Part shown: in pieces, positions 116-43,453 of the stretch
Position numbering within the stretch: the stretch's first letter is position 1
Layout: the number at the start of each line of letters is the position of its first letter
Virus record (IMG/VR): IMGVR_UViG_3300024272_000071
Strand: one strand, 5' to 3'
DNA length: 64,000 nucleotides
Origin: a virus
The notes under the pieces: generated by a model
What the model was told of the DNA's origin: nothing
The model's input: only the letters and a program-made list of their open reading frames with translations
Databases searched by the model: none
Translations under genes and position numbers: made by a program

Positions 116-144
116 TTGACAAACAGCCCAACATCTGCTATAAT
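116..144 (+). promoter_or_regulatory. early sigma70-type promoter (TTGACA-17-TATAAT)
   Basis: TTGACA at 116-121 and TATAAT at 139-144 with a 17 bp spacer; upstream A-tract AAAAAAAGTTTC. Confidence 0.6.
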
Positions 145-188
145 AGATAATGTCGAAAGGCAATAGAACAAGAAAGAGGTAATGCAAA

Positions 189-845
189 ATGAATCGCCAC
201 TTCTACATTCTGATGGATACTGAAACTGCCAACGGTCTGGATTGCCCCATCAACTACAATACCGCATGGTCTGTAATTGACCAGCACGGCAACACCTACG
301 AAAACTTCAATTTCATCAACCGCGACATTTTCTTTGACCGTCCCGAACTCATGCAGTCCGCATACTACGCCCACAAGATTCCGCAGTATCTTGAACAGAT
401 TGAACGCGGCGAAATCAAGGTTGCAACGTGGTACGAAATCCGCAAGGCGTTCCGCGACTGTTGCGAAAAGTACAACATCAAGGCAGTTATCGCCCACAAT
501 GCCCGATTCGACTATCGCTCCTGCACGATGACCCAGCGTTACGAAACCTGCTCCAAGTATCGCTACTTCTTCCCGAAGGGCGTTGAAATTTGGGACACGC
601 TGGCAATGGCTCGTGATGTGGTCGCCCCGATGCCCACTTACCGCAAGTGGTGCGAAACCAACGGTTTCACCTTGAAGAACGGACAGCCCCGACTGACCGC
701 CGAAATCCTGTTCCGCTTCATCTCCAAGGACATTGACTTTGTGGAAGAACACAAGGCAATGGAAGATGTGAACATCGAAAAGGAAATCTTTTGGTACTGC
801 ATCCGCAAGCACAAGGCAATGCGTCGAAAGGCTTTCAAGGACTGA
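189..845 (+). CDS. DnaQ-like DEDDh 3'-5' exonuclease
   Basis: Exo motifs LMDTETANG (D-x-E), AHNARFDY and HKAMEDV (H..D); RBS AAGAGG upstream. Confidence 0.7.
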   Translation: MNRHFYILMDTETANGLDCPINYNTAWSVIDQHGNTYENFNFINRDIFFDRPELMQSAYYAHKIPQYLEQIERGEIKVATWYEIRKAFRDCCEKYNIKAVIAHNARFDYRSCTMTQRYETCSKYRYFFPKGVEIWDTLAMARDVVAPMPTYRKWCETNGFTLKNGQPRLTAEILFRFISKDIDFVEEHKAMEDVNIEKEIFWYCIRKHKAMRRKAFKD

Positions 846-853
846 AAAAGTCC

Positions 854-882
854 TTGACAGCCGCCCCAAAGTGTGATATAAT
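854..882 (+). promoter_or_regulatory. early sigma70-type promoter with extended -10
   Basis: TTGACA 854-859, TGaTATAAT 874-882, 17 bp spacer. Confidence 0.6.
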
Positions 883-913
883 AAGTACATCAAAAGGAAA
901 GAGGTAATTGACC

Positions 914-1150
914 ATGACTCAGTTTCAGTATGAAGTAAATGTTTACGAAGAAGACCACGTCCTGTCCTGCAAGACCAACAATCCCCGCACCGCCTGCCAG
1001 TTTATGCTGGATCATGCCGACTGCTATCTTGATGTCATCAACGGTTTTACTGGTGAAGTGCTCGCTGTGATGAACCATGAGAATGCTTACTGTCAAGAGG
1101 ATTTCGGGCTGATGCTTCTCGGCTATATGACCGAAACAATTTGGGGCTGA
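914..1150 (+). CDS. hypothetical small protein
   Basis: ATG preceded by AAGAGG; 78 aa ORF; terminator downstream. Confidence 0.5.
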   Translation: MTQFQYEVNVYEEDHVLSCKTNNPRTACQFMLDHADCYLDVINGFTGEVLAVMNHENAYCQEDFGLMLLGYMTETIWG

Positions 1151-1151
1151 C

Positions 1152-1215
1152 CCTTCGGGGTTGGCTCTTTTCTTTTGAGCCGGTCGTGCGCGGGCCACAC
1201 GACCGGTTTTTCCGC
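1152..1215 (+). terminator. tandem rho-independent terminators
   Basis: CCCTTCGGGG hairpin plus GGCCACACGACCGG hairpin with T tracts. Confidence 0.5.
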
Positions 1216-1387
1216 AATGGGCAGATCTACCAAGAAATTCGCTGAAAATTTGTGCATTTTGCCAATAGACATTTTATCCCGAAAGTGGTATACTAATAAT
1301 GTCAGGAGGGGAGGCCAAGAAACCGAGAGGCGGCCGACTCTCAGGAAGTAGAGGAAGAAAACTTGAAAAAAAGTTTCCGAAACCTCT

Positions 1388-1416
1388 TGACAAACCACTG
1401 ACCCTGTGGTATAATA
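1388..1416 (+). promoter_or_regulatory. early sigma70-type promoter
   Basis: CTTGACAAAC...TGGTATAAT; same upstream AAAAAAAGTTTCCGAAAC element as the other early promoters. Confidence 0.55.
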
Positions 1417-1537
1417 AGGGTGTCAGGTGAGGGAAGCAACTGACAGTCGCTTAGCCAAGGTAGCCTGCGGAGTGGGTGCGCAACACTCCATGGTTAGACC
1501 CTGTGCAAGCGAAGCGAAAAAAAAGTTTGCGAAACCC

Positions 1538-1566
1538 CTTGACAAACAACTGAATAGGTGCTATAA
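1538..1566 (+). promoter_or_regulatory. early sigma70-type promoter
   Basis: CTTGACAAAC-17-TGCTATAAT with AAAAAAAGTTTGCGAAAC upstream. Confidence 0.55.
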
Positions 1567-1612
1567 TAAGAGTGTCCTAAGGGACAAGACAAAAAGAAAG
1601 AGGTAATGAATC

Positions 1613-2020
1613 ATGATGAAGTTCACTAAGAAGGTTGCTCTGGAAGTCGCTATCAATGCTATCGAGAACTCCACCCTGCCCAACTGGTCTTTCACTGAGG
1701 GCGAGGAAACCCTGACCATCTCCAAAGCGGAAGCCATCGAGAAGCTCCAGAAGATGATTGAGCAGTTGGAGGCTAAGTCCAACGCTCCCAAGAAGCCCAC
1801 TAAGGTGCAGGAAGCCAACGAGGGTGTCAAGGACATCATCAAGGCTGTGCTGGAAGGTCAGTCCCCCATGACTGTCTCCGAAATCATGACCCACTCTGCG
1901 GAACTGAGTGCCCTGTCCAACCAGAAGGTCGCCTCTCTGGTGCGCCAGATGGTCGAGGCTGGCGTGCTGGTTCGCACTGAGGAAAAGCGCAAGGCTTTCT
2001 TCGCCCTCGCTCAGGGCTGA
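1613..2020 (+). CDS. hypothetical protein (135 aa)
   Basis: Strong RBS AAAGAGG; ORF followed by two hairpin terminators. Confidence 0.6.
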   Translation: MMKFTKKVALEVAINAIENSTLPNWSFTEGEETLTISKAEAIEKLQKMIEQLEAKSNAPKKPTKVQEANEGVKDIIKAVLEGQSPMTVSEIMTHSAELSALSNQKVASLVRQMVEAGVLVRTEEKRKAFFALAQG

Positions 2021-2023
2021 GCC

Positions 2024-2095
2024 TGAGACCCCGAAAGGGGTCTCTTTTTCTTGGGCTGCTCGCGGACGGGCGCCGCGAGCAGTTTTCCGCGATAC
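2024..2095 (+). terminator. tandem rho-independent terminators
   Basis: GAGACCCCGAAAGGGGTCTC + T-run, then GCTGCTCGCGG..CCGCGAGCAG + T-run. Confidence 0.6.
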
Positions 2096-2197
2096 ACTAG
2101 ACCCACCGAAAAATTTTCTTGAAAAATCGGCATTTTAGGGGTTGACAGATTATCCCGAATCTGATATAATAGAACCATCGAAAGGAGCTGATCTGAA

Positions 2198-2338
2198 ATG
2201 TTCACCTGTCCTGCACTCTGTATCCTTGGTCTGGTTCTCTCTATGTGGGGATTCATCTGGGGTATCTTCTTCCAGGAATTCCTGTGGCTGTGTGTAGCTG
2301 GTTTTGCGCTGGGCTGGATGTTTTCTAAAGATTGTTGA
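2198..2338 (+). CDS. small hydrophobic membrane peptide (46 aa)
   Basis: RBS AAAGGAG 8 nt upstream; hydrophobic two-helix sequence; own TTGACA/TATAAT promoter at ~2143-2172. Confidence 0.4.
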   Translation: MFTCPALCILGLVLSMWGFIWGIFFQEFLWLCVAGFALGWMFSKDC

Positions 2339-2401
2339 AATTAGGGGTTGACAAACTGCCCCAACTGTGTTATAATAATAATGTCGAAAGGAGCTGATAG
2401 C

Positions 2402-2875
2402 ATGGAGTTCAAGGAAGCTATCAAGGCTTACGCTAAAATGATGGGCGTAAGCGAATCGGAAGCGAAGCAGGATGCCGAAGCTACCATCAAAATGTGGATG
2501 ACCACCGAAGGCATGACAAGGGAATTTGCGGAAGCCAGCTGGATTGAAGAGCAGGAAGATGCAGACCCCGAATTGCTGAAACAGATGGAAAAGCAGGCGA
2601 AGGAATCTGGCGCAACAAAGGTCAAGGCAAAGCGTGCCCCGAATTACAGTCTGGAAGGACAGAAAAAGCGGGAACGCAAGCCCAACGAAGAAAAGCGTTC
2701 ACTGATTGAACAAATCGCCAATGCAATGGAAAGTTTTCATCACATGGATGAAGAAATTCCTGCTTCTGGTGTGGATTTGGTCGAAATTGTGAATCCTGAA
2801 CGAGAAATCACCTTCAAAATTGGTGAAAATTGCTACAGTGTGACCCTTACCTGCCATCGCAAGCCGAAAAAATGA
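2402..2875 (+). CDS. hypothetical acidic protein (157 aa)
   Basis: RBS AAAGGAG; promoter TTGACAAAC..TGTTATAAT at ~2348-2376; terminator after the stop. Confidence 0.6.
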   Translation: MEFKEAIKAYAKMMGVSESEAKQDAEATIKMWMTTEGMTREFAEASWIEEQEDADPELLKQMEKQAKESGATKVKAKRAPNYSLEGQKKRERKPNEEKRSLIEQIANAMESFHHMDEEIPASGVDLVEIVNPEREITFKIGENCYSVTLTCHRKPKK

Positions 2876-2877
2876 CA

Positions 2878-2908
2878 AAATGGGCGAGAAATCGCCCATT
2901 TTTTGCTG
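2878..2908 (+). terminator. rho-independent terminator
   Basis: GGGCGAGAAATCGCCC hairpin + TTTTTTG. Confidence 0.6.
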
Positions 2909-2959
2909 TTTTTGTCCGGTTTTGTGCGGTTTTACTAGAAAAATCGCATAATTTTTGTT

Positions 2960-3790
2960 GATTTTGCCTATTGACAAATGCGGCGGGCTGTGGTATAATA
3001 ATAGAGGGGAGTTGAGCGGGCCGGTCGCGGGCGATCCGGACCGAATTTCCCGATCGGACCTGTATATGCAAATTTTTCTCTTGAATGCAACTATATGCAA
3101 CTAATTACCTTGAATCCCGAAACCCCGGTCGGGCCCCGCCGATCGGATAACCGATCGGCTATCATATGCGCTCGTGCGCGGTGAAAGCGATTCCTCCAGC
3201 GCCTCACAAATCAATTCTCTCTGCCCCTCAGCGTAGATCGAACATACCCCGCGCGTTCTCTGGAACATGCATATGCTGCGGAATTTGACAAATTGAATTA
3301 AATATGATATAATATTTAAAAAAGGCACCTCCGCCGACCGGGAAATTGACAACATAATTTTTTTATGATATAATAAAAGTAGAAGGATATAGGCCGACCG
3401 GAAAGTCGGCAACAAGAGGAAGGAGATTTGACAAATAAACAAATATATGATATAATACGGTGGGGCATATTTTTACCGATCGGTAATAGATCAAGAGGAG
3501 CAAGAGTAAAGAATAGCAAGTGGACGGGCTGGCATATGCGGCATAATATATTGAACTTAATTACGGACACGAGGACGGATAAATGAGTAGAGTAGTCTAG
3601 GCCCGATCGGGCCACCCCACTTCCAGAATTTTCCCAGTTTTTACAATTTTATCTATCCTCATCTTCTCTCCCTTGATTTTTATAAAAAAATTTGCTATAA
3701 TATATATGTAAAGAATGAGGGAATCGCTTCGCTCTTCCCTCTATCCAATCCTGGGGTCGCTCCCCAGTGAATATCGAAAGGAGACTCCTT
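2960..3790 (+). promoter_or_regulatory. non-coding control region: five tandem promoters plus a CCGRYCGG palindrome array
   Basis: TTGACA/TATAAT-type promoters near 2971, 3287, 3343, 3427 and 3690; at least 8 copies of CCGATCGG / CCGACCGG / CCGGTCGG; repeated TATATGCAA and CATATGC motifs; no ORF of 60 aa or more. Confidence 0.5.
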
Positions 3791-3792
3791 AC

Positions 3793-4398
3793 ATGAATAC
3801 TTACGAGAATGAAATGATGGCTATGCTTCGTCAGGGTATGTCTATGGACGAGGTTATGAACAAGATGCGCACTCAGCTGGCCAATGCACAGGCCCAGATC
3901 AAGGCTGAAGAGGAAGCTAAGCGTAAGCAGGCTGAAGCTAAGCGCAAGGCCGATAATGAGACCAAGGCTCAGACTCTGGTTGATCTTTGCAACCGTGCAA
4001 TGGAGAATAAGCTGACCGCAGCCGATGTCGCTTATGTGCAGCAGCTCTATGCTACTCAGAAGTATCCTGAGCATGCTCGCATGTTCGCTCAGATGTTTGA
4101 TGCCAATGAAGTGGATTCCACTATCAAGATGGCAGTTGGCACTATGAGCGCTCTGACTCCTCTGGTCCATCTGGCTGGTGCCAAGGATTGGGATGAAGTT
4201 CTTGATGAACTTGATGCCAAGGAAATCAAGAATGCTCACGCTCAAGCCAATGCAAAAGTGGATGAAGATCTGAAGGAAATGCAGGACCTCTTCGGGCTTC
4301 TCTTTGGCCAGGCAAAGCCTGTCCAGAAGCCCGCTCAGCCTACTCCCAAGTCTGACGACACCATTCTGCGCGACTTCGTAAATTCCATCAATAAGTGA
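3793..4398 (+). CDS. hypothetical coiled-coil protein
   Basis: RBS AAAGGAG; K/E/A-rich heptad-like sequence. Confidence 0.55.
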   Translation: MNTYENEMMAMLRQGMSMDEVMNKMRTQLANAQAQIKAEEEAKRKQAEAKRKADNETKAQTLVDLCNRAMENKLTAADVAYVQQLYATQKYPEHARMFAQMFDANEVDSTIKMAVGTMSALTPLVHLAGAKDWDEVLDELDAKEIKNAHAQANAKVDEDLKEMQDLFGLLFGQAKPVQKPAQPTPKSDDTILRDFVNSINK

Positions 4399-4466
4399 AA
4401 GAAGGGCTAACGCCCTTCTTTCTTTTTTTATATAAATAAGAAAAAGGGAGGCTAATGCCTCCCTTA
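4399..4466. terminator. bidirectional terminator pair between convergent genes
   Basis: GAAGGGCTAACGCCCTTC + T-run (plus strand) and AAAAAGGGAGGCTAATGCCTCCCTT (serves the minus-strand gene). Confidence 0.55.
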
Positions 4467-4925
4467 TACCTTGCGCTTACCATATTTCTTGGCTTTCTCT
4501 TTTCCTTCATTCACAAGTTCTTGCAATCTTGCTGCTCCATCAGATTCATAATTTGCAAGATTCTCTTCACTCTCTCGAATAAGAGCCATCAATTTCTTCT
4601 CACCCTGTGCAAATAGAGCTTCAACAGTCGCTCTCTCAGTTACAACAGTAGAAGTCTGCTTTGCAGCCTCCTCTTTCTTATTGCCACGAATCGCAGTACC
4701 ATATACAATACTATAATGCAGTGGCTTCAAGTCATCTACAGACTTCAGATTAGGAGTAACCTGACCAATTATCATACCACCATTAATCAGTCTACGATCT
4801 TCACCAATCATCCACATAATATCATTGCGCGCTCTTCCCTGTTCACTAATCTCAAACAGAAACTCTCTCTTCGGGATTACATAAACTTCCTTACCTCTAT
4901 AAGCACCAAGACAATCATATGCCAT
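4464..4925 (-). CDS. hypothetical protein (153 aa)
   Basis: Minus-strand ORF with RBS AGGAGGAAA upstream of the ATG; first gene of a three-gene minus-strand module. Confidence 0.5.
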   Translation of the reverse strand: MAYDCLGAYRGKEVYVIPKREFLFEISEQGRARNDIMWMIGEDRRLINGGMIIGQVTPNLKSVDDLKPLHYSIVYGTAIRGNKKEEAAKQTSTVVTERATVEALFAQGEKKLMALIRESEENLANYESDGAARLQELVNEGKEKAKKYGKRKV

Positions 4926-5029: not shown

Positions 5030-5078
5030 TACGAGGCGGGCGTATAAGGTATGGTATACCTCGGAGCGAAGCGGAGAG
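5030..5078. repeat. perfect 15 bp inverted repeat (GGTATGGTATACCTC...GAGGTATACCATACC)
   Basis: Seen directly; 15 nt loop; lies between the minus-strand module genes. Confidence 0.6.
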
Positions 5079-5173
5079 GTATACCATACCGCCTATTTTA
5101 TTCTATTCTATAGGTTACTATTTTTTGTACAAAACTCAGAAATTTTTGTACATTTCATCTAAAATCCGATCGG

Positions 5174-5719
5174 TCACTCGGGCAACACATTAGATACTTT
5201 GGTAATCACAATATTCGTCTTATCATATTCTACTTGCTGCAATTCATATGTAATCAATCCTAATCTCCGCAAGATATCAAGGATATCATTGATTACAACA
5301 TTATTAGAAGTAGTTGATGTTGCTAAGCCAATGCGATTCTTTAACTCTTTATGAGTTACAACAAATGATGTTTCACCATTGCCTAAATAACGATTCAAGA
5401 GATAGACAAATAGGTTTACAGTATTGCGGTTTAAAGAGTTTACAAGCTGTCTCAAAGTAGTAAATGGAACCAACATTGCAGAAGATGCTTGCAACTCTTT
5501 TAAGATATATACTTTTCTATCGTCATCTTCTTCTAATAGACCCATTTTTACCAATTGTTTTACATATTTAGATGCGCTACGACGATCCATTCCAGTTTCA
5601 TTACCAATATTTACAAATGTAGCAACTTTATATGAAACGCTTCTTGCATCTTGACTATCCCAATCAGATTTACATTGAAACCATGCATAAACTAAATCAC
5701 AATAATTTCTATCTGCCAT
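5174..5719 (-). CDS. winged-helix DNA-binding protein, candidate repressor or replication regulator
   Basis: Two wHTH-like segments (SASKYVKQLVKMGLLEED; GLATSTTSNNVVINDILDILRRLGLI); divergent orientation; flanked by TTTTTGTACA repeats. Confidence 0.45.
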   Translation of the reverse strand: MADRNYCDLVYAWFQCKSDWDSQDARSVSYKVATFVNIGNETGMDRRSASKYVKQLVKMGLLEEDDDRKVYILKELQASSAMLVPFTTLRQLVNSLNRNTVNLFVYLLNRYLGNGETSFVVTHKELKNRIGLATSTTSNNVVINDILDILRRLGLITYELQQVEYDKTNIVITKVSNVLPE

Positions 5720-6351: not shown

Positions 6352-7185
6352 ATGACCCCCAAGATTATTGATGGCAAAGCAATTGCGGCAAGAGTTGAAC
6401 AAGAGTGTAAACACACTATCGAAGCATTCAACCTCCAGCCTAAACTTGTTGTAATTACTACCGACGAAGCTGACGCTGCCTCTAAAGTATACATGCGGAA
6501 TAAGCATCGTGCAGCTGAACGTGTCGGTATCCTATATGAAGAAATTATTCTTAATAAATATGCGGACATGACAATTATGCTATCTACTATTCGTCAGCTT
6601 AACGCTGATCCTACGGTACATGGCATTATCGTACAGCTGCCATTACCAGCTCGTTTCGATGTGCCGACTATTCAAGCTGAAATTGATCCTGATAAAGACG
6701 TTGATGGGTTCCATCCCGACTCAGCATTTGACCCTTGTACGCCCGATGCTGTGATGCATATGCTTCTGGATGACGAAAAAATGACTCTTGACGGAAAACA
6801 CGCCGTTGTCATTGGCCGTTCCAATATCGTTGGAAAACCTCTCGCTCGTCTCCTTCTCCAAGAGAATGCGACTGTTTCCGTCTGTCATTCTCATACTGAT
6901 TCAATTTTACTTGAGCAGCTTTGCAAGAGCGCTGATTACGTGTTCTGCGCCGCAGGCGTCCCGGGGCTCGTGAGACCCGAAATGTTGGCGTACGGCACAG
7001 TGCTCGTCGACATTTCTATCAATAGAGATATTGAAGGAAAGTTGTGCGGCGATGCCCATCCGGATTGTTATCCACTATGTTCTGCATATACTCCCGTTCC
7101 TGGCGGTGTTGGACCACTTACCGTATCCCGTCTCATGTGGCACACCGTTACCTCTGCACTAATGGCAAGAAAGGATGAAACTTAA
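6352..7185 (+). CDS. folD: bifunctional methylenetetrahydrofolate dehydrogenase/cyclohydrolase
   Basis: Full-length FolD signature (KVYMRNKHRAAERVGI, GIIVQLPLP, VVIGRSNIVGKPLA, PVPGGVGPLTV). Confidence 0.85.
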   Translation: MTPKIIDGKAIAARVEQECKHTIEAFNLQPKLVVITTDEADAASKVYMRNKHRAAERVGILYEEIILNKYADMTIMLSTIRQLNADPTVHGIIVQLPLPARFDVPTIQAEIDPDKDVDGFHPDSAFDPCTPDAVMHMLLDDEKMTLDGKHAVVIGRSNIVGKPLARLLLQENATVSVCHSHTDSILLEQLCKSADYVFCAAGVPGLVRPEMLAYGTVLVDISINRDIEGKLCGDAHPDCYPLCSAYTPVPGGVGPLTVSRLMWHTVTSALMARKDET

Positions 7186-12424: not shown

Positions 12425-12838
12425 ATGATTCATCCCAATGAAGCTGTGCGAATGATGATGTCTGCGCATGATGCAGACCTGAAACTGGCTCGTGAAAAGT
12501 ATGTTCCTTACTGGATGGACCAGCTGAACAAGCGTATTATCAGCGCTGCCGAACATGGCTATGGCAATGTAACTCTTGAGCTTCGCTGGGCTGAACGACT
12601 TGGTGCTGCCCATGCTCCCAGCCGTCGTGTTCAGAAATATACTGAAAGAATTCTGGATGAAGAGCTGACTCGAGATACTGGTTACTATGTCGTTAAAAAA
12701 TCCGAAAATGATGACCATTATGCTCGTTATGAGGTATGGTGGTATTCTGAGGAATATGATGCCTATAAAGCAGAAAGAGAGGCAACTATTAATGGCATCG
12801 AAGAAGAAGAAGATTACCCTCTCCCGCCTCTTAGCTGA
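12425..12838 (+). CDS. hypothetical protein (137 aa)
   Basis: RBS AAGGAGG. Confidence 0.5.
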   Translation: MIHPNEAVRMMMSAHDADLKLAREKYVPYWMDQLNKRIISAAEHGYGNVTLELRWAERLGAAHAPSRRVQKYTERILDEELTRDTGYYVVKKSENDDHYARYEVWWYSEEYDAYKAEREATINGIEEEEDYPLPPLS

Positions 12839-12981
12839 AGACGGCTGGGAGCTAGCTTACTCCTCTAATAAATATCAGTATTACCTGTATCACCCTGCTC
12901 CGGGTATTTGGGGCGAAATCCGCAAGATCAAGAGAAGCATCGTTATTAACTACCTTGATAATAAGAAAGGATAGTGATATT

Positions 12982-13794
12982 ATGGCAGTCGCAAAATCTT
13001 ATGAGCGTTATCCTATTGTTTCTGACGTGTTCCTCAAGGAAGGTCGTAAGTATGTGAAGGTTCGTGAAACTTGCGGCCGTTGCGGCGGTTCTGGTATCTG
13101 GGCTTGGGGTCCGTATGGCGGTACTTGCTTTGCTTGTCAGGGTGCTGGCTATCGTACTCTGGAAGTTCGCTGGTATACTGACAAGGAACGTGCGGCTCAG
13201 GATCGTCAGGCTGAAAAACGTGCTGAGGCTCGTGTCCAGCGTCAGCTTGAGCACGATGCAAAAGTACAGGGTGCAGAATACAACGGTTTCACTGATGGTT
13301 TTGTAATTGCAGTCCTTGGCAATACCTATGAAATTAAGGACGAACTGAAGGAAGCCGGTGCAACTTACACCCATGGCCTTGGTTGGCATTTTGATAACAT
13401 CGCAAAAGTGCCGGCTAAATATGTGGATCGCACCCGCATGATTATGTGGGAAGACGCGTCTATTGATGGTAAGATCAAGAGTGCCGAAGAATTGGAGCAA
13501 CTGGTTGCGGTTGCCAGCCCGATCGATGGTTCTATCCATATGTATACTGTTGGTGAGCGTGTACGCGACCTGATTCTTAAGGTCTACAAGGTCTGGGAGG
13601 GTCCGGGTTATACCATGCATACTCTTGTTGATGACGACAACAATGTGTTCATGTGGACCACTTCTTCTCGCACTCTGCCGCTGGATGCTCAGGTAACTAT
13701 GGATGTTACCATTAAGGAGCACACTGAATACAAGGGTGTTAAGCAGACTGTTCTGACTCGTCCGCGCATTAAGGAGGTTGTTGGAGTAGCATGA
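12982..13794 (+). CDS. hypothetical protein with N-terminal zinc ribbon
   Basis: CGRCGGSG...CFACQGAGY; RBS AAAGGA before ATG 12982. Confidence 0.5.
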   Translation: MAVAKSYERYPIVSDVFLKEGRKYVKVRETCGRCGGSGIWAWGPYGGTCFACQGAGYRTLEVRWYTDKERAAQDRQAEKRAEARVQRQLEHDAKVQGAEYNGFTDGFVIAVLGNTYEIKDELKEAGATYTHGLGWHFDNIAKVPAKYVDRTRMIMWEDASIDGKIKSAEELEQLVAVASPIDGSIHMYTVGERVRDLILKVYKVWEGPGYTMHTLVDDDNNVFMWTTSSRTLPLDAQVTMDVTIKEHTEYKGVKQTVLTRPRIKEVVGVA

Positions 13795-14317: not shown

Positions 14318-14372
14318 TTCATTTGAAAATTCTAAAAATTTTTGATATAATATATATAGAAAGTGAGGGGAT
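14318..14372 (+). promoter_or_regulatory. conserved promoter-leader cassette (copy)
   Basis: CATTTGAAAATTCTAAAAATTTTTGATATAATATATATAGAAAGTGAGGGG. Confidence 0.6.
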
Positions 14373-14377
14373 GACTT

Positions 14378-16069
14378 GTGAACGCAGTAATGAAGATGTT
14401 TGAAGGTCAGGAAAAGTCTCTCGCCCAGTTTGACACTTATCGTCGTGATTACGCGGACGCTGAGTGTTGCACTCAGGCTAAGCCTGTTGAAGAATTGCTG
14501 ATGCCGTGGGCAATTAACAAGGCTGGTCTGTATCAGATGTTCGACGAGAAGCTGATTCTGACCAAGGAAGTTTCCTATAACCGTGACCATGAGGAACTTG
14601 CCCAGCAGATGGACGTTATGCTGAGCCAGCATCGTTCCTTTGTGCAGACTTTTTTCGCTCGTCTGGCGGAAGAGCTGGGTATCCGTCCTGATTCTTGGCG
14701 CACCAATGCATATATGGATGACTCTCCCAATGAGTTTTTCTACTACAGCATGCGCTATCTGATGAACGATCATAGTCTGGTCGAAGCTCGTGTGGACTCT
14801 CCCATGAAAGCTACTATTTGCGGTCAGCAGATGAATTTTGCCGTGGGTCAGAAGGCTATGCGTGCAATCGGCAAGGTGGCTCGTGCTCTTGGTCTGAACG
14901 AAGAGTTTGAAGCCTTCCGTGTGGCACACTCTATGGTGCTGAATCAGGCTAAGCTGAAGGGCAAGCTGTGTCTGTCTATCCATCCCCTCGACTATGCTAC
15001 TGCTTCCGACAACGAAAGCGGTTGGTCCAGCTGCATGTCTTGGCGTGAGGGTGGCGCATATCGTTTCGGCACTGTCGAAATGATGACTTCTTCCTATGTC
15101 ATTTGTGCCTATCTGGCTTCCGATTCCGTAGAAATGGAAATCGGTGAAGGTAAGTGGCCGTCCAAGAAGTGGCGTGCTTGGGTTATCGTTACCCCTGACT
15201 TCATTGTTGTAAACCGCAACTATCCCTATGACAATGAAGATCTGATGCGCGCTTGCGTAGATTGGGTCAAGGAAATGGCTGGCGAGTATTACCATGTCAA
15301 GTATGGTGAGACTCATAACAACTGGAATCAGAATGAGTTCTTTGAGATTGATATGAACTATATGTATAACGACCTTGGTGATGGTCACGTAGGTTGTTAT
15401 GCAGAAGGTGCCGATACTGGCTACTGTGATCATATCAACATCTCTGGTCCCGCTATCTGTATGTGGTGCGGCGAAACCGTTGACTACAACAGCGATGATG
15501 ATGCCGCATGCACCTTGACTTGTCAAGAGTGCAGCGGCCGGGTTCGGTGTGCCTGCTGTGGTGCGTCCATTAGTCACGGCTACGAGATGTGGGGTCCGGA
15601 TGATGAGCCGTACTGCGAGTGCTGCTATCAGGATCGGTTCAGCACTTGTGATTGCTGTAATGATGTGGTGGATAGTGACACAATTTATACTGTAAGCGTA
15701 CCCGTGGATCACGAATGGGCTAAGCAGTGGATTGCCGCCTGGGATCATGATCATCCTAATGGCTCGCGCTTCTATCACTACATTCCTGAGGAGATTACCG
15801 CTCGAGTATGCCCCATCTGCCTCAAGGATGCTGGCATTGATCCTGATAAGGATCTTGAATGGGATCCCATTCTTCCTTTCCACAAGCATAATCATTGGGG
15901 TGGCTATAGCCGCTACTGGAATGGTTCTGTCATTCATCCACGTTTCAAGTGGAATGATGTATGTGGACTGTTTGGCTGTGAATATGACGATGAGTTCTAT
16001 GCCGCGATTTGGCATCGCTATGCCGAGTCCGTGCGTAGCCATCGCTGGAACGAAGCCTTGTTCATTTGA
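14378..16069 (+). CDS. large hypothetical protein with C-terminal multi-Cys zinc-ribbon cluster (paralog A)
   Basis: Shares the LCLSIHPLDY..SDNESGWSSC block with the 18498-19913 ORF; C-terminus has more than 20 Cys in CxxC pairs. Confidence 0.6.
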   Translation: MNAVMKMFEGQEKSLAQFDTYRRDYADAECCTQAKPVEELLMPWAINKAGLYQMFDEKLILTKEVSYNRDHEELAQQMDVMLSQHRSFVQTFFARLAEELGIRPDSWRTNAYMDDSPNEFFYYSMRYLMNDHSLVEARVDSPMKATICGQQMNFAVGQKAMRAIGKVARALGLNEEFEAFRVAHSMVLNQAKLKGKLCLSIHPLDYATASDNESGWSSCMSWREGGAYRFGTVEMMTSSYVICAYLASDSVEMEIGEGKWPSKKWRAWVIVTPDFIVVNRNYPYDNEDLMRACVDWVKEMAGEYYHVKYGETHNNWNQNEFFEIDMNYMYNDLGDGHVGCYAEGADTGYCDHINISGPAICMWCGETVDYNSDDDAACTLTCQECSGRVRCACCGASISHGYEMWGPDDEPYCECCYQDRFSTCDCCNDVVDSDTIYTVSVPVDHEWAKQWIAAWDHDHPNGSRFYHYIPEEITARVCPICLKDAGIDPDKDLEWDPILPFHKHNHWGGYSRYWNGSVIHPRFKWNDVCGLFGCEYDDEFYAAIWHRYAESVRSHRWNEALFI

Positions 16070-16120
16070 AAAATCTAAAAAAATTTGATATAATATATAT
16101 GTAAGGTTGAGAGAGAAAGA
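16060..16120 (+). promoter_or_regulatory. conserved promoter-leader cassette (copy)
   Basis: TTCATTTGAAAAATCTAAAAAAATTTGATATAATATATATGTAAGGTTGAGAGAG. Confidence 0.6.
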
Positions 16121-16177
16121 AATCTCTCAGAAGATTTTGGCTAAGAGCCACGACAAAAAGAAAGTGAGGAAACCAAT

Positions 16178-16654
16178 ATGCCTAAGACCAAGATTGTTGA
16201 GATTACTGAGAAGTTCACCAAGAAGGATAATTTCGCCGCTCTGCGTGAGTGCGTTCTGGAGCACGCCGACTGGTTCAATGAGGGCGAGGCCGATCGTCTG
16301 GTTGAGTTCATCGACCATGAGGTTGAGCTGCTGACTCGCCGTGCCGCTGGTGCCAAGAAGTATGCTGAGAAGCATGCTAAGAAGGCCGAGGATGCTATGG
16401 CTGTCAATCTGATGGAAGTGCTGACTGCCAATGGCGGTCTGATGACCATTCCTCAGATCTGCGCTGAGATGAACCCCGAGCTGATGGCTACTCCTCAGAA
16501 GGTGACCTACCGCCTGACTTCTCTGGTGAAGGCTCATACCATCGTGAAGGAGCTCGTCTCCGTGAAGGAAGAGGGTAAGCCCACTCGTAAGGTCAACGCC
16601 TACCGCGTGGCTACCGAGAATGACACCTTCGAGGATGAGGTTGTCGAGGAGTAA
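16178..16654 (+). CDS. hypothetical acidic protein (158 aa)
   Basis: RBS GTGAGGAAA before the ATG; bidirectional hairpin after the stop. Confidence 0.55.
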   Translation: MPKTKIVEITEKFTKKDNFAALRECVLEHADWFNEGEADRLVEFIDHEVELLTRRAAGAKKYAEKHAKKAEDAMAVNLMEVLTANGGLMTIPQICAEMNPELMATPQKVTYRLTSLVKAHTIVKELVSVKEEGKPTRKVNAYRVATENDTFEDEVVEE

Positions 16655-16662
16655 TATAAAAG

Positions 16663-16695
16663 GGAATACCCCGGAAGTCATTTCCGGGGTATTCC
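16663..16695. terminator. bidirectional terminator hairpin between convergent genes
   Basis: GGAATACCCCGGAAGTCATTTCCGGGGTATTCC. Confidence 0.55.
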
Positions 16696-17271
16696 TAATA
16701 CTGGCAATAGTCCACCAATCGTATTACCAGCAGTGATAATCAAGAGTGCAGGCAACCATACCAAAATTGACTCTCCTGATGACCAAAAGTAGAAAGCGTC
16801 TGCAATACAATGATTGAATCCAGATAAAATAAATGCTGCCACACACCCTGAGGTAATCCATAAAGGTGTGTCTTTTCGTGTTGCCATTGTCATAAGGGCA
16901 CCACAGAATATGGATCGCACCCATAGCTCCATATATGGCATATTTAATTTTTCTCTTCCAACCAAACTTGCATCGCTCAGTAGGTCAATCGTACCTCCCA
17001 ACAGGGGTATGCATACAAGAACAAGAGCAACTCCAACTAAGTTGCCCGCCCAAATCCAAGGCATCTGCCACCATTTACGATCGCCTTCGACTAACTGATG
17101 TACTTGTCCTGTGTACAGATAAGATTGTGTTAAACGAACACTCAATAGTCCAAGAGAGAAAAGAATCGCTCCGACTACTGGGTTCGGCGCGAGTAGGTAT
17201 AATATGCATCCGAGTGCGATGAATGCTCCAGCACGAATTGATTGTACGTGCCAATTAGTAGGCATATTCAT
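16678..17271 (-). CDS. integral membrane protein (~6 TM, 197 aa); possibly an ECF-type substrate-capture component
   Basis: Six hydrophobic helices; minus strand; size and topology resemble ECF S-components, but no signature was recognised. Confidence 0.45.
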   Translation of the reverse strand: MNMPTNWHVQSIRAGAFIALGCILYLLAPNPVVGAILFSLGLLSVRLTQSYLYTGQVHQLVEGDRKWWQMPWIWAGNLVGVALVLVCIPLLGGTIDLLSDASLVGREKLNMPYMELWVRSIFCGALMTMATRKDTPLWITSGCVAAFILSGFNHCIADAFYFWSSGESILVWLPALLIITAGNTIGGLLPVLGIPRK

Positions 17272-26919: not shown

Positions 26920-27394
26920 CTGTTTACCTGACCTCACTTACTCTTTATGAAAATAAACATGAATAGTAAACAGTTAGGAAACATTACTGAACTTGAAACG
27001 ATGTTGGCATTTCTTAAACTTGGTTATAATGTTCTTACTCCATATGGAGATTGTGAGCGTTATGACTTCGTGGTAGATATTGGCAATAAGTTTATAAGAG
27101 TTCAAAGTAAAACATCTCACTCAACAGATGATGGAGCATCATTCTCATTTAGTGGTAGAAGTTGTAATCGCAAAGATGGGAAAATTGTACACCATCAATA
27201 CACAGCGGATGAAATTGATTACTTCGCAACAACTTTTAATGGAACGACCTATTTGGTTCCAGTAGAAGAGTGCGGAGCGGATAAAAGACTCCGTATTCTT
27301 CCAGCCAAAAACGGTCAAACCCGAGGAATTACTTGGGCGAAAGATTATGAATTGGAGGAAGTAGTAAAGAGTTGGTGAGCTGATGTGTAAGCAA
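26920..27394 (+). mobile_element. intron-like insertion in the tRNA-Asn anticodon loop, almost entirely ORF
   Basis: 475 nt; only ~27 nt 5' and ~16 nt 3' of it lie outside the ORF. Confidence 0.55.
26947..27378 (+). CDS. PD-(D/E)XK nuclease of the Hjc / I-Ssp6803I-like family (paralog 1)
   Basis: E..(15)..YDFVVD..(12)..RVQSKT arrangement gives the E, D and Q/E-x-K catalytic positions; 143 aa; ~40% identical to the ORF at 37027. Confidence 0.55.
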   Translation: MKINMNSKQLGNITELETMLAFLKLGYNVLTPYGDCERYDFVVDIGNKFIRVQSKTSHSTDDGASFSFSGRSCNRKDGKIVHHQYTADEIDYFATTFNGTTYLVPVEECGADKRLRILPAKNGQTRGITWAKDYELEEVVKSW

Positions 27395-32722: not shown

Positions 32723-32813
32723 AGGGGAGTGGTGTAACGGCAGCACGGCAGACTCTAAATCTGTTAGCCCTCTGAAGGCGTAAGTCAGGGTTCGAATCCC
32801 TGCTCCCCCGCCA
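32723..32813 (+). tRNA. amber-suppressor tRNA (anticodon CTA), class II, Ser-like (G73)
   Basis: AGGGGAG/CTCCCCC acceptor (A1:C72); D-arm GTG-TAACGGCAG-CAC; stem GCAGA/TCTGT; loop CTCTAAA gives anticodon CUA; 21 nt variable arm; T-arm CAGGGTTCGAATCCCTG; G73; CCA. Confidence 0.7.
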
Positions 32814-41938: not shown

Positions 41939-43453
41939 ATGAATTCTATGCTGAATGGTCTGAAGAATGCTACTAACTACACTCTGACCGAAAATGGTGG
42001 TATTACCCATAAGACCACCAAGAGCGATCTGCTTGACATGTTTGCTATGGGTGCGGCAATGCGTAACCGCTCTGACTCTGATGTTATGCTGATGTTCCGC
42101 AAGGCGTTTTCCGAGAACCCGGTTTACGCTCTGAAGTGCCTGTTCTATATCCGCGACGTGCGCGGTGGTCAGGGTGAGCGTCGTTTCTTCCGTGTAGTCA
42201 TCAAGGATATGGCTACCTACTCCAAGCCCACTCAGGAAGCTATCGCTCGCAACATGGAGCTGATTCCCGAGTTCGGTCGCTGGGATGACCTGTATGCCTT
42301 TATGGATACTCCCCTGCAGGATAAGGCTCTGAATATCATCAAGCATCAGCTTGCTCTTGATGTTCAGTGCAAGACCCCTTCCCTTCTGGCGAAGTGGATG
42401 CCCTCTGAGAACGCTTCTTCCAAGAAGACCATTCATCTGGGCAATATCACTCGCTCCTATCTGAATATGACCCATAAGGAGTATCGTCGTACTCTGGCGA
42501 TCCTGCGTTCCCGCATCAACATCGTTGAGAAGCTGATGTCTGAGAACCGTTGGGATGAAATCGAGTTCGATAAGATTCCTTCCAAGGCTGGTCTGATCTA
42601 CAAGAACGCTTTCGCTCGCCGCGATATCATCAAGGCGAAGTTCGAGAAGTTTGCTAAGGACGAGACCACCAAGGTGAACGCATCCACTCTGTATCCTTAC
42701 GAGGTTGTGGAGAAGGCTCTGCGTATCAACACCTATCGTCCCGACGAGACTGACCGCGCGATGGTAAACAAGTACTGGGCAAATCTGGCTGACTACTTCA
42801 ATGGAGCCAACCTGAATGCTCTGGCTGTTGTGGATACCTCTGGTTCCATGCACGGCACCCCCATCAACGTAGCTATCTCTCTCGGCATGTACTGTGCCGA
42901 GAAGGCTGGCGGTCCTTTCGCCAACCACTACATTTCCTTCGCTTCTCGTCCTCAGCTGATTGAGTGCGAAGGTGTGGACTTCGTCGATAAGGTGCATCGT
43001 ATCTATCGGACCAATCTGGTAGATAACACCAACATCGAGGCTGTCTTTGATCTGCTCCTGGACACCGCTAAGGCGAATAAGTGTTCTCAGGACGACATGC
43101 CCCAGAACATCCTGATCATCTCCGACATGGAGTTTGACTCTGCTTCTCGCGGCGGTTCCTATAACTGGCGTACTGGCAAGTATGAGGGTAGCTACGGCTT
43201 CACTCAGGCTCAGGCTGATACTGTCATGGAAGGTATCGCTCGTAAGTGGGCGGCTGCAGGCTATAAGATGCCTCACCTGATCTACTGGAATGTGGATGCT
43301 CGTCAGAACAACATTCCTATGATCGGCAACGGTCCTATCTCCTATGTGTCTGGCTTCTCTCCTTCCATCTTCCAGAGCATCATCACCGGCAAGACTGGCT
43401 ATGAGCTGATGATGGAATGCCTGAACAAGGAGCGCTATGCTCAGGTTCAGTAA
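41939..43453 (+). CDS. TROVE-like helical domain + C-terminal vWA domain protein (Ro60/Rsr-like RNA-binding protein candidate)
   Basis: C-terminal MIDAS motif AVVDTSGSMHG with vWA-like downstream region; ~295 aa N-terminal helical domain resembling Ro60; RBS AAAGGAGAAA. Confidence 0.45.
   Translation: MNSMLNGLKNATNYTLTENGGITHKTTKSDLLDMFAMGAAMRNRSDSDVMLMFRKAFSENPVYALKCLFYIRDVRGGQGERRFFRVVIKDMATYSKPTQEAIARNMELIPEFGRWDDLYAFMDTPLQDKALNIIKHQLALDVQCKTPSLLAKWMPSENASSKKTIHLGNITRSYLNMTHKEYRRTLAILRSRINIVEKLMSENRWDEIEFDKIPSKAGLIYKNAFARRDIIKAKFEKFAKDETTKVNASTLYPYEVVEKALRINTYRPDETDRAMVNKYWANLADYFNGANLNALAVVDTSGSMHGTPINVAISLGMYCAEKAGGPFANHYISFASRPQLIECEGVDFVDKVHRIYRTNLVDNTNIEAVFDLLLDTAKANKCSQDDMPQNILIISDMEFDSASRGGSYNWRTGKYEGSYGFTQAQADTVMEGIARKWAAAGYKMPHLIYWNVDARQNNIPMIGNGPISYVSGFSPSIFQSIITGKTGYELMMECLNKERYAQVQ

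Follow-up and report, generated by a model that had tools for sequence, protein, structure and literature searches.

Organization of the locus

The sequence we have analyzed (the window) is a stretch of 64,000 nt from the IMG/VR virus record IMGVR_UViG_3300024272_000071. It is part of a phage genome of about 174 kb, and locus L047 is identical to it across 5,136 nt. A 0.8-kb stretch near its left end is a real, conserved non-coding control region in this large human-gut phage. The region occupies positions 2903–3792, from the terminator of the upstream early gene 2402–2875 (2877–2902, + strand, an 11-bp stem followed by a T run) to the start codon of gene 3793–4398. From 5' to 3' it contains a promoter (P1), a hairpin, a conserved core, three cassettes formed by a promoter and a short palindrome (box), a conserved block, and the first promoter of a different class, followed by gene 3793–4398 itself. 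Its sequences and exact architecture are undescribed: they correspond to no Rfam family and to nothing in the literature, and a literature search on the box sequence CCGATCGG gave no relevant result.

Gene 3793–4398 (+ strand) codes for a protein of 201 amino acids, gp3793, which is acidic (pI 5.2), all-helical and of unknown function. It is the sole gene of its transcription unit, which ends in an intrinsic terminator (4397–4422, + strand) with convergent genes beyond. Since there is also a terminator on the left, and the gene is directly followed by the second one, the unit is monocistronic and bounded by terminators, and the region is its promoter and leader part. No terminator-like site is present in 2951–4397, so there is none between the promoters. 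The AlphaFold model of gp3793 (pLDDT 56) is too poor for a fold search. Homologues of this protein always adjoin the box array or sit within it, and their pI ranges from 4.5 to 5.2. An acidic helical protein of this kind does not look like one which binds the boxes.

According to the initial annotation, the region contains no open reading frame (ORF) of 60 amino acids or more. As a count this is not correct: the mechanical ORF list includes minus-strand ORFs with TTG or GTG starts of 133, 113 and 99 amino acids. Nevertheless, neither their length nor their frame is kept in close relatives, whose indels have lengths not divisible by three. In practice, then, we are dealing with a non-coding region, as originally described.

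Promoters and palindromic boxes

The five consensus-like promoters which had been proposed are all found, all of them on the + strand. Four are perfect, with 12/12 consensus positions: P1 (2971–2999, TTGACA-17-TGgTATAAT), P2 (3285–3313), P3 (3346–3374) and P4 (3428–3456) all fit the pattern TTGACA-N17-TGnTATAAT. P4 is followed by the leader ACGGTGGGGCATATTTTTA, nearly invariant across about 30 nt among the relatives described below. The fifth promoter (3673–3701, TTGATT-17-TGcTATAAT followed by ATATATGTAA) has 10/12 consensus positions and belongs to a different class.

In fact, two classes of promoters are found in the window. Class I is formed by ten perfect promoters at 116–3428, one for each small early gene. 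Class II has a TTGAAA-type −35, an A/T-rich spacer and a conserved leader, ATATATGTAAGGTTGAGAG; it starts at 3673 and recurs at least 17 times beyond this position. Because the class I promoters end at 3428 and the class II family starts at 3673, the region is truly a boundary between early and later genes, in agreement with its first description as lying between early and middle regions. Examples of class II copies are those at 14323, 16066, 20932, 25103, 25465, 33256, 35640, 41570 and 43833, which share a conserved upstream "cat", the TTGAAA −35, the A/T-rich spacer, TGaTATAAT and the conserved leader ATATATGTAAGGTTGAGAGAGGAG. The class II leader TTGAGAGAGGAG presumably resembles the region downstream of the T5 early promoter N25. 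On the class I side, TGTCGAAAGG is found in the leaders at 151 and 2382, and with it the Spo0A-box heptamer TGTCGAA. L001 and L002 have similar leaders, perhaps no more than a shared 5' untranslated region.

The boxes are 8-bp palindromes of the form CCGRYCGG. At least eight copies had been reported, and there are exactly eight in 2960–3790. Only 0.066 are expected from 500 dinucleotide shuffles of the sequence, none of which contained more than one, so the enrichment over shuffled sequence which had been suggested as a test of the array is clearly present. The whole window contains 14 copies (1.17 expected): the eight in the region, one at 5166 and five elsewhere.

Box S1 (CCGATCGG, 3050–3057) is found in the core and is followed by S2a (CCGGTCGG, 3125–3132). 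The next two, S2 (3139–3146) and S3 (3151–3158), are the pair spaced by ATAA already noticed in the initial annotation; together they form an inverted repeat, H2 (3138–3159, + strand, GCCGATCGG-ATAA-CCGATCGGC). Each of the three following boxes is associated with a promoter. S4 (CCGACCGG, 3334–3341) starts 20 nt after the −10 of P2, S5 (CCGACCGG, 3394–3401) starts 19 nt after the −10 of P3, and S6 (CCGATCGG, 3476–3483) starts 19 nt after the −10 of P4. The last one, S7 (3603–3610), is inside the conserved block 3560–3622. A distance of 15–60 nt from each promoter to the palindromes had been proposed; this is right for P2, P3 and P4 and also for P1, with 50 nt, while the fifth promoter has no box. 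The outlying box at 5166–5173 (CCGATCGG) abuts the stop codon of a minus-strand gene (5174–5719), which codes for a double winged helix-turn-helix (wHTH) protein.

Only the octamer itself is conserved. In 95 distinct box contexts there is no base preference beyond it, and we have rejected an extended operator for this reason. The variants which are tolerated are symmetric, A or G at position 4 and T or C at position 5, which is what two equal half-sites CCGR would predict. The possibility that the boxes reflect restriction-site avoidance, or a protected cluster of restriction sites, was also dropped: CGRYCG is not avoided genome-wide (47 found, 27 expected).

Related loci and conservation of the boxes

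Human-gut and IMG/VR metagenomes contain homologous regions on more than 40 contigs, which correspond to phages of 95–175 kb. Six IMG/VR loci were obtained with the upstream protein. The hairpin pattern GGGCCGNNCGCGGGCGNNNCGGNCCGAATTTCC gave ten IMG/VR loci, two of them on contigs already collected, and 26 metagenome loci, many of them from human gut. Exact-protein look-ups with gp3793 homologues added 16 more loci. No locus was confirmed when the downstream protein was used as a probe of IMG/VR, and the pattern ATATGNNAATTTTTCTNTTGAAT gave one chance match inside a gene (L007), which we have discarded. Among genome contigs, the pattern GGGCCGNNCGCGGGCGNNNCGGNCCGAATTTCC is found in a single short contig, binned in a Clostridia metagenome-assembled genome (MAG), which is a weak hint about the host. 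There is no DNA similarity to deposited phages. In every related locus the non-coding module adjoins a gp3793 homologue.

The cassettes are well conserved. In 11 genomes whose gp3793 is 46–93% identical, P2, P3 and P4 retain their −35 and −10. For both P3 and P4, the distance from the −10 to the start of the box is 19 nt in all 11 genomes; for P2 it is 20 nt in nine of them. In the other two, L050 and L061, the P2 box is degenerate (TGACCGG and GCGACCGG), with its position unchanged. The cassettes, on the other hand, are separated by anything from 61 to 103 nt, and the leaders of P2 and P3 have diverged in sequence. If transcription starts about 7 nt after the −10, the boxes span approximately +13 to +21, at the downstream edge of the polymerase footprint.

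Boxes are found only from about +30 to +1350 nt after the hairpin in the related loci, and up to +2150 in the window itself, with 3–8 copies. There are some exceptions: the L001 lineage uses CCAATCGG, and the L011 and L002 groups have no boxes. The L011 group retains a core of 140 nt only. In the L010, L016 and L008 lineages there are no tandem promoters, and a box is found 0–4 nt upstream of the weak −35 of the gene's single promoter. These three lineages also have boxes after the gene, beyond the terminator, similar to the outlying box of the window (5166). Boxes placed in this way are unlikely to be on a shared transcript, which favors recognition on DNA.

Hairpin, core and other conserved elements

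The most conserved element of the family is a GC hairpin of 25 nt, H1, whose pattern was matched in 36 further loci. In the window (3017–3043, + strand) it reads C-GGGCCGGTCG-CGGG-CGA(T)C-CGGACC-G, with an 11-bp stem, one bulge and a CGGG loop. The core is found 3' of it (3043–3124, + strand), with GAATTTCC, box S1, TATATGCAAATTTTTCTCTTGAAT, a second TATATGCAA and TTGAATCCCGAAAC. The universal part of the family is formed by H1 followed by the motifs GAATTTCC, CATATG(G/C), AAAATTTTC and TCCCGAAA. Alignments show that the core is retained even when the flanking protein is only 36–45% identical.

The free positions of the hairpin covary: G-C/T-A, C-G/G.T, G.T/G-C, A-T/G-C, C-G/T-A and C-G/G-C exchanges are found, with an additional change from C-G to T-A in the L002-5 group. 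Compensatory changes affect three pairs. Among ten distinct versions, 93.6% of cells are paired, compared to 84.3% in shuffles, and there are 13 cells with double changes, compared to 4.0 (none of 500 shuffles was as high), with the caveat that most columns are fixed by the search pattern.

P1 is less constant than the hairpin. Most close relatives have it, L021, L050 and L058 have lost it by deletion, and the L010 and L016 groups lack it, with H1 directly 3' of the upstream terminator. In L008 and L031 the −10 of P1 is just 3 nt before H1, too close for the whole hairpin to be transcribed. As P1 is not conserved before H1, the role of the hairpin is independent of the P1 transcript. H1 and the core may be a separate site for another conserved early factor. 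Two paralogous early proteins (1613–2020 in the window and L047:910–1263) have a C-terminal winged helix with a nearly invariant helix, SNQKVSxLVRQ. Proteins of this type are found in every related lineage, including those without boxes, as is the case with H1 and the core.

Other repeated motifs had been described in the region, and they are indeed present: there are two copies of TATATGCAA, at 3063 and 3092, and three of CATATGC (3163–3169, 3270–3276 and 3533–3539; 0.16 expected), the latter conserved at homologous positions. In the window as a whole CATATG is found 46 times, twice the expectation of 22, and several copies are exactly at the 3' ends of tRNAs (for example 22930, 29918 and 37844).

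Two more elements precede the class II promoter. The conserved block at 3560–3622 (+ strand, ATTACGGACACGAGGACGGATAAATGAGTAGAGTAGTCTAG-GCCCGATCGGGC-CACCCCAC), which contains S7, recurs downstream of the gp3793-type gene in L008, L010 and L016. It is followed by a pyrimidine-rich, G-poor tract (3623–3672, + strand), whose composition, not its sequence, is kept in the relatives.

Candidate binding proteins

The wHTH protein 5174–5719 had been suggested as the partner of the boxes, and it is not the best candidate. Five TGTACA sites similar to TTGTACAA flank its gene on both sides (5126, 5147, 5815, 5846 and 5867), and they are probably its own operators or iterons. Besides, no homologue was detected in several of the loci which contain boxes. 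A partner of the ParB family (ParB/Noc type) was also considered; scans of about 40 window ORFs against Pfam and PHROGs, a part of the full set, gave no match.

A better lead, and the present candidate, would be an early protein of the AbrB/SpoVT type. Its gene has its own class I promoter and is found at L047:144–422, that is, 786–1064 nt to the left of the window start in the same genome. The protein matches TIGR01439 with 50 bits (cut-off 28), and its N-terminal domain is very close to bacterial transition-state regulators. A homologue was found in each of the 11 box-rich loci whose upstream sequence extends for at least 4.2 kb and covers the usual position of the gene, about 4–6 kb 5' of H1. 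It is absent from the box-free groups, and was not seen in L016, which reaches 4.3 kb upstream.

Role of the boxes

We tentatively propose, with somewhat less than even confidence, that the boxes are putative operators for a dimeric DNA-binding protein which controls the early promoters. Two properties of an operator region are found here: symmetric sites repeated well above chance, and a fixed register with the promoters which overlaps the polymerase footprint. An operator array or repressor-controlled switch was one of three readings offered in the initial annotation. It is the best supported of them, given the 8-bp palindrome and the fixed 19–20-nt register in 11 genomes, although the binder is only a candidate. 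The elements, their enrichment and conservation, the fixed spacing of promoter and box and the limits of the unit are direct observations; from geometry and conservation we infer that a protein would bind the boxes and, most simply, repress the promoters, with the AbrB/SpoVT-type protein as the candidate. In such a scheme the host sigma-A RNA polymerase would initiate at P1–P4, and a symmetric, probably dimeric protein would occupy the boxes at the downstream edge of the promoter complex. Once bound, it would shut these otherwise constitutive promoters, and the expression of gene 3793–4398 would be left to the box-free class II promoter at 3673. The outcome would be a switch from early to middle expression, which turns one early gene on and off.

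Several observations weigh against operators. Eight bp is short for a classical helix-turn-helix operator. The other early promoters (116–2348) have no box, so the boxes are not a general signal for early shut-off, and the class II promoter of the window has no box nearby. The rare variant CCAATCGG is found in one orientation only, in three lineages. Boxes are present in L001 and L033, yet no AbrB-like homologue is detectable there; the phyletic link between this protein and the boxes involves two or three independent lineages with incomplete flanks, and is a weak correlation. The boxes also pair with each other. In the adjacent pair which a script picked in each of ten genomes, the two boxes are complementary at 8/8 positions; in nine of the ten genomes there is a closing pair, which may be G-C (four), C-G (four) or G.T (one), with a loop of 3–6 nt. 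In the window the script chose S2a and S2 (3125 and 3139), whose flanks, C and A, are unpaired; the G-C closing pair of S2 and S3 was read directly from the sequence. S6 and S7, which are 127–203 nt apart, have central bases AT/AT in four genomes and AC/GT in five, with one mismatch in L053. Complementary boxes with a covarying closing pair and a variable loop fit pairing in a single strand better than independent protein sites.

These last observations lead to a different explanation, the main rival of the operators, which we nevertheless consider rather unlikely: the + strand transcripts from P1–P4 would be a structured leader specific to this family, or an abundant non-coding RNA, in which the boxes are GC-rich pairing modules. 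Its helices would be H2 (S2 with S3), S6 with S7, and H1. Its target might be gene 3793–4398, whose expression or stability it would affect in cis, or it might be a sponge or decoy in trans. The short decoy or sRNA transcripts which were the third reading of the initial annotation would be conceivable in this context. H1 has compensatory changes, with G.T wobbles on the + strand only, and H2 keeps a 9-bp stem in spite of the different closing pairs and loops. S6 and S7 are fully complementary in nine of ten genomes, in two alternative states, and in the AC/GT genomes the predicted pairing probability of their helix is about 1. Four consensus promoters without an ORF behind them would yield a very abundant RNA, and the leader of P4 is almost invariant. 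Against all this, Rfam gives no family match in 2850–3850 even at E = 10, and only tRNAs elsewhere reach the gathering score. Fold energies are no better than those of shuffles (z = −0.13 and −1.36). A panhandle formed by the P4 leader with the C-rich tract is predicted in all relatives, as is the pairing of purine and pyrimidine tracts, again no better than in shuffles of matched composition. Column-shuffle z-scores from alifold were judged to be inflated by the conserved palindromes and have not been used. A short RNA would have no terminator to define it. P1 has been lost by deletion from close relatives, other lineages lack it, and in L008 and L031 it is too near H1; some boxes are outside the transcribed unit, beyond terminators. 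The fixed distance from −10 to box has no obvious rationale in an RNA. Finally, CCAATCGG would break the pairing, and CCGATTGG, which is compatible with wobble pairs, is never seen. A more specific form of this explanation, a little less probable in our opinion, is that the boxes would be the pairing modules (H1, H2, S6 with S7) of a new family of highly expressed phage non-coding RNAs and not operators; such an RNA, transcribed from the four tandem promoters during the first minutes after infection, would be a decoy or sponge directed at a host factor or a defence system, and gene 3793–4398 would be a passenger.

The operator proposal also has to be compared with explanations in which the region acts on the DNA itself. 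A replication origin appears improbable to us. Its initiator would bind the boxes, unwinding would occur in the AT-rich cassettes, and the tandem promoters would provide the transcription which activates it or primes it through an R-loop. Such an origin would account for a conserved non-coding region in which strong promoters cluster with repeats, hairpins and AT-rich stretches; there are also purine-rich transcript segments 3' of P3 and P4 in all relatives, and the double-wHTH protein, with weak matches to replication initiators and ScpB-like proteins, is encoded 1.4 kb away. The boxes, however, are irregularly spaced 8-bp palindromes (12 to about 260 nt), not phased iterons of about 17–22 bp, and there is no DnaA box in 2960–3790 (21 in the window, 18.7 expected). 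The minimum of the cumulative GC skew, a check which had been suggested, is found at 6–7 kb of the window, next to the wHTH gene and not in the region; the iteron reading of the initial annotation is not supported by these data. The wHTH gene has TGTACA repeats of its own on both sides, L016 has separate iteron-like repeats adjoining its wHTH-like gene, and the L011 group retains only the 140-nt core, without boxes.

We would assign the same low probability to a signal similar to the injection stop signal of T5, which would pause DNA transfer, mark the boundary of a long terminal repeat or be a terminase site. The region ends a block of small genes, each with a consensus promoter, and it is a large untranslated repeat region. 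Its repeats, palindromes and hairpin keep their order while the flanking genes diverge, which is also the case in T5 (Davison, bioRxiv 10.1101/866236). Furthermore, the early exonuclease-like protein has homologues in Enterococcus phages of 138–142 kb, one of which (phage H1, not to be confused with the hairpin) has early genes flanked by non-coding repeat arrays with a similar GC hairpin. The presumed likeness of the class II leader TTGAGAGAGGAG to the T5 N25 region would agree with this. Nevertheless, the paired DnaA boxes which are the center of the T5 signal according to Davison (bioRxiv 10.1101/866236) are absent. The large contigs carry the region at varying coordinates, with no fixed end visible, and a fixed spacing between promoter and box points to transcription, not to DNA transfer. 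It is very improbable, finally, that the boxes are promoter-proximal sites where a processive antiterminator, comparable to lambda Q/qut, nut/put or RfaH/ops, is loaded onto the polymerase which leaves P2–P4. Such systems typically have their element at a constant distance from the promoter, as is the case here (about +13 to +21). On the other hand, the single gene is followed by a strong terminator and convergent genes, without any long operon, and the boxes are symmetric and also found far from any promoter.

Comparison with known systems

Phage switches built from early promoters and operators include lambda OR/OL with CI and Cro, and phi29 A2c/A2b/A3 with p4 and p6. The region resembles them in having several short symmetric sites in a fixed register with strong promoters for the host polymerase, at the boundary between temporal classes. 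In contrast, its site has only 8 bp and is downstream of the start (+13 to +21) instead of over the −35 and −10. There are three to four cassettes in the same direction with no gene between them, extra sites are spread over 0.6–2 kb, and the binder is only a candidate. In T7, the tandem early promoters A1, A2 and A3 precede gene 0.3 (ocr). Here too, several very strong host-type promoters in the same direction precede a small acidic early protein; the T7 promoters, unlike those of the window, do not share a downstream palindrome, and early transcription in T7 runs through an operon with many genes.

The metbox of MetJ is also an 8-bp palindrome, AGACGTCT, found in tandem. The similarities are the size of the palindromic unit, its multiple copies and a small dimeric regulator in MetJ, with a protein of the AbrB type encoded by an early gene in this phage. 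Metboxes adjoin each other directly; the boxes of the window are irregularly spaced. No AbrB protein is known to read a sharply defined GC-rich octamer. With respect to the T5 injection stop signal (Repeat Region 3; bioRxiv 10.1101/866236), the likeness is that the order of elements is conserved and the neighboring genes are not. The region differs from it in having neither DnaA boxes nor a demonstrable terminal repeat or fixed end, and in being built around promoters.

Operators of this kind would be a known type of phage switch, and nothing we have found requires a new mechanism. The region gives a concrete regulatory locus, with perfect host-type promoters, an exact 8-bp element, a conserved hairpin and a candidate regulator, to an uncultivated family of large human-gut phages of Bacillota (95–175 kb), relatives of the recoded phAss-1 group. 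Should the boxes be operators, the locus shows how these phages part early from later expression while using the host polymerase throughout. For work in Clostridia and other Bacillota, the cassettes (a consensus promoter, a 19-nt spacer and an 8-bp box) would be strong promoters which are both compact and switchable. The value of the locus would be higher if the RNA explanation is true, as it would then code for a new abundant phage non-coding RNA.

Other features of the genome

The early exonuclease-like protein 189–845 distantly links this phage to phAss-1 and to the Enterococcus phages of 138–142 kb, for example H1. phAss-1 is a gut phage which uses genetic code 15 (PMC10607447); its non-coding regions are not discussed in that paper. 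In its genome (OQ749652; L044:6620–6740 and 6800–7000) we have found a tRNA-like 3' end, GGTTCGACTCCC...CCACCA. After it come a consensus promoter, a GC hairpin and GTGCAA repeats, arranged like P1, H1 and the core of the window. A second gap in phAss-1 (L044:11800–12300) contains 11-nt AAAATCGNYAA tandem repeats and GGGGGCCGG palindromes. The early region of Enterococcus phage H1 (OP534061) is flanked by non-coding arrays (L046:3560–4550, 12790–13600 and 15750–16320), with AAATAACA repeats, TGTGAAAnnTTTCACA palindromes similar to Rex operators, and GTAAGCGCTTAC. It also has two GC hairpins, near L046:13065 and 16114, which resemble hairpin H1. This phage has been cultured and could be used as an experimental model.

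In contigs of 169–175 kb, the gp3793-type gene is found at 6.7, 21.5, 40, 133 and 136 kb, and the assemblies are circularly permuted. We have therefore inferred nothing about genome termini from contig ends. L063, a 4695-nt contig in a Clostridia MAG bin, and L024 end or start within 20 nt of hairpin H1, possibly by an assembly break at this GC hairpin; this is too little to infer a genome end. In L016, iteron-like TTTCATGGTATTGTCAGAATAC repeats and variants are found from +1690 to +1960 after the hairpin, by a minus-strand gene which codes for a wHTH protein similar to replication organisers and has an in-frame TAG. A hint of similarity between the upstream gene and IncFII RepA was not reproduced. 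To the right of the region there is a large inverted repeat (5049–5091, GGTATGGTATACCTC...GAGGTATACCATACC) between the convergent genes 4464–4925 and 5174–5719.

The window contains 33 tRNAs detected by ARAGORN, including a CTA suppressor, together with tRNA-repair genes and topoisomerase II. The suppressor tRNA (32723–32813, anticodon CTA) has a long variable arm and is labelled "Pyl" by ARAGORN. Given the distant kinship to the TAG-recoded phAss-1 group, the late genes may be recoded at TAG, and the table-11 ORF calls in them may be broken. Three Rfam tRNA matches (20997–21122, 21129–21246 and 21541–21655; 115–126 nt, 41–47 bits) which ARAGORN did not call head the array of 33 tRNA genes (22.8–39.7 kb). 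Perhaps these are tRNA-like elements, or tRNAs interrupted by inserts or introns. A small PD-(D/E)XK endonuclease (26947–27378) is encoded among the tRNAs, and an RNA-repair set is found at 41939–43453 (phrog "RNA-binding protein"), 46795–47640 (nucleotidyltransferase) and 50133–51575 (RNA ligase). Host-like metabolic genes are also present: a formate/nitrite transporter (16678–17271, − strand), FolD (6352–7185, + strand) and a CitMHS citrate transporter (23039–24385, + strand), the last one within the tRNA region.

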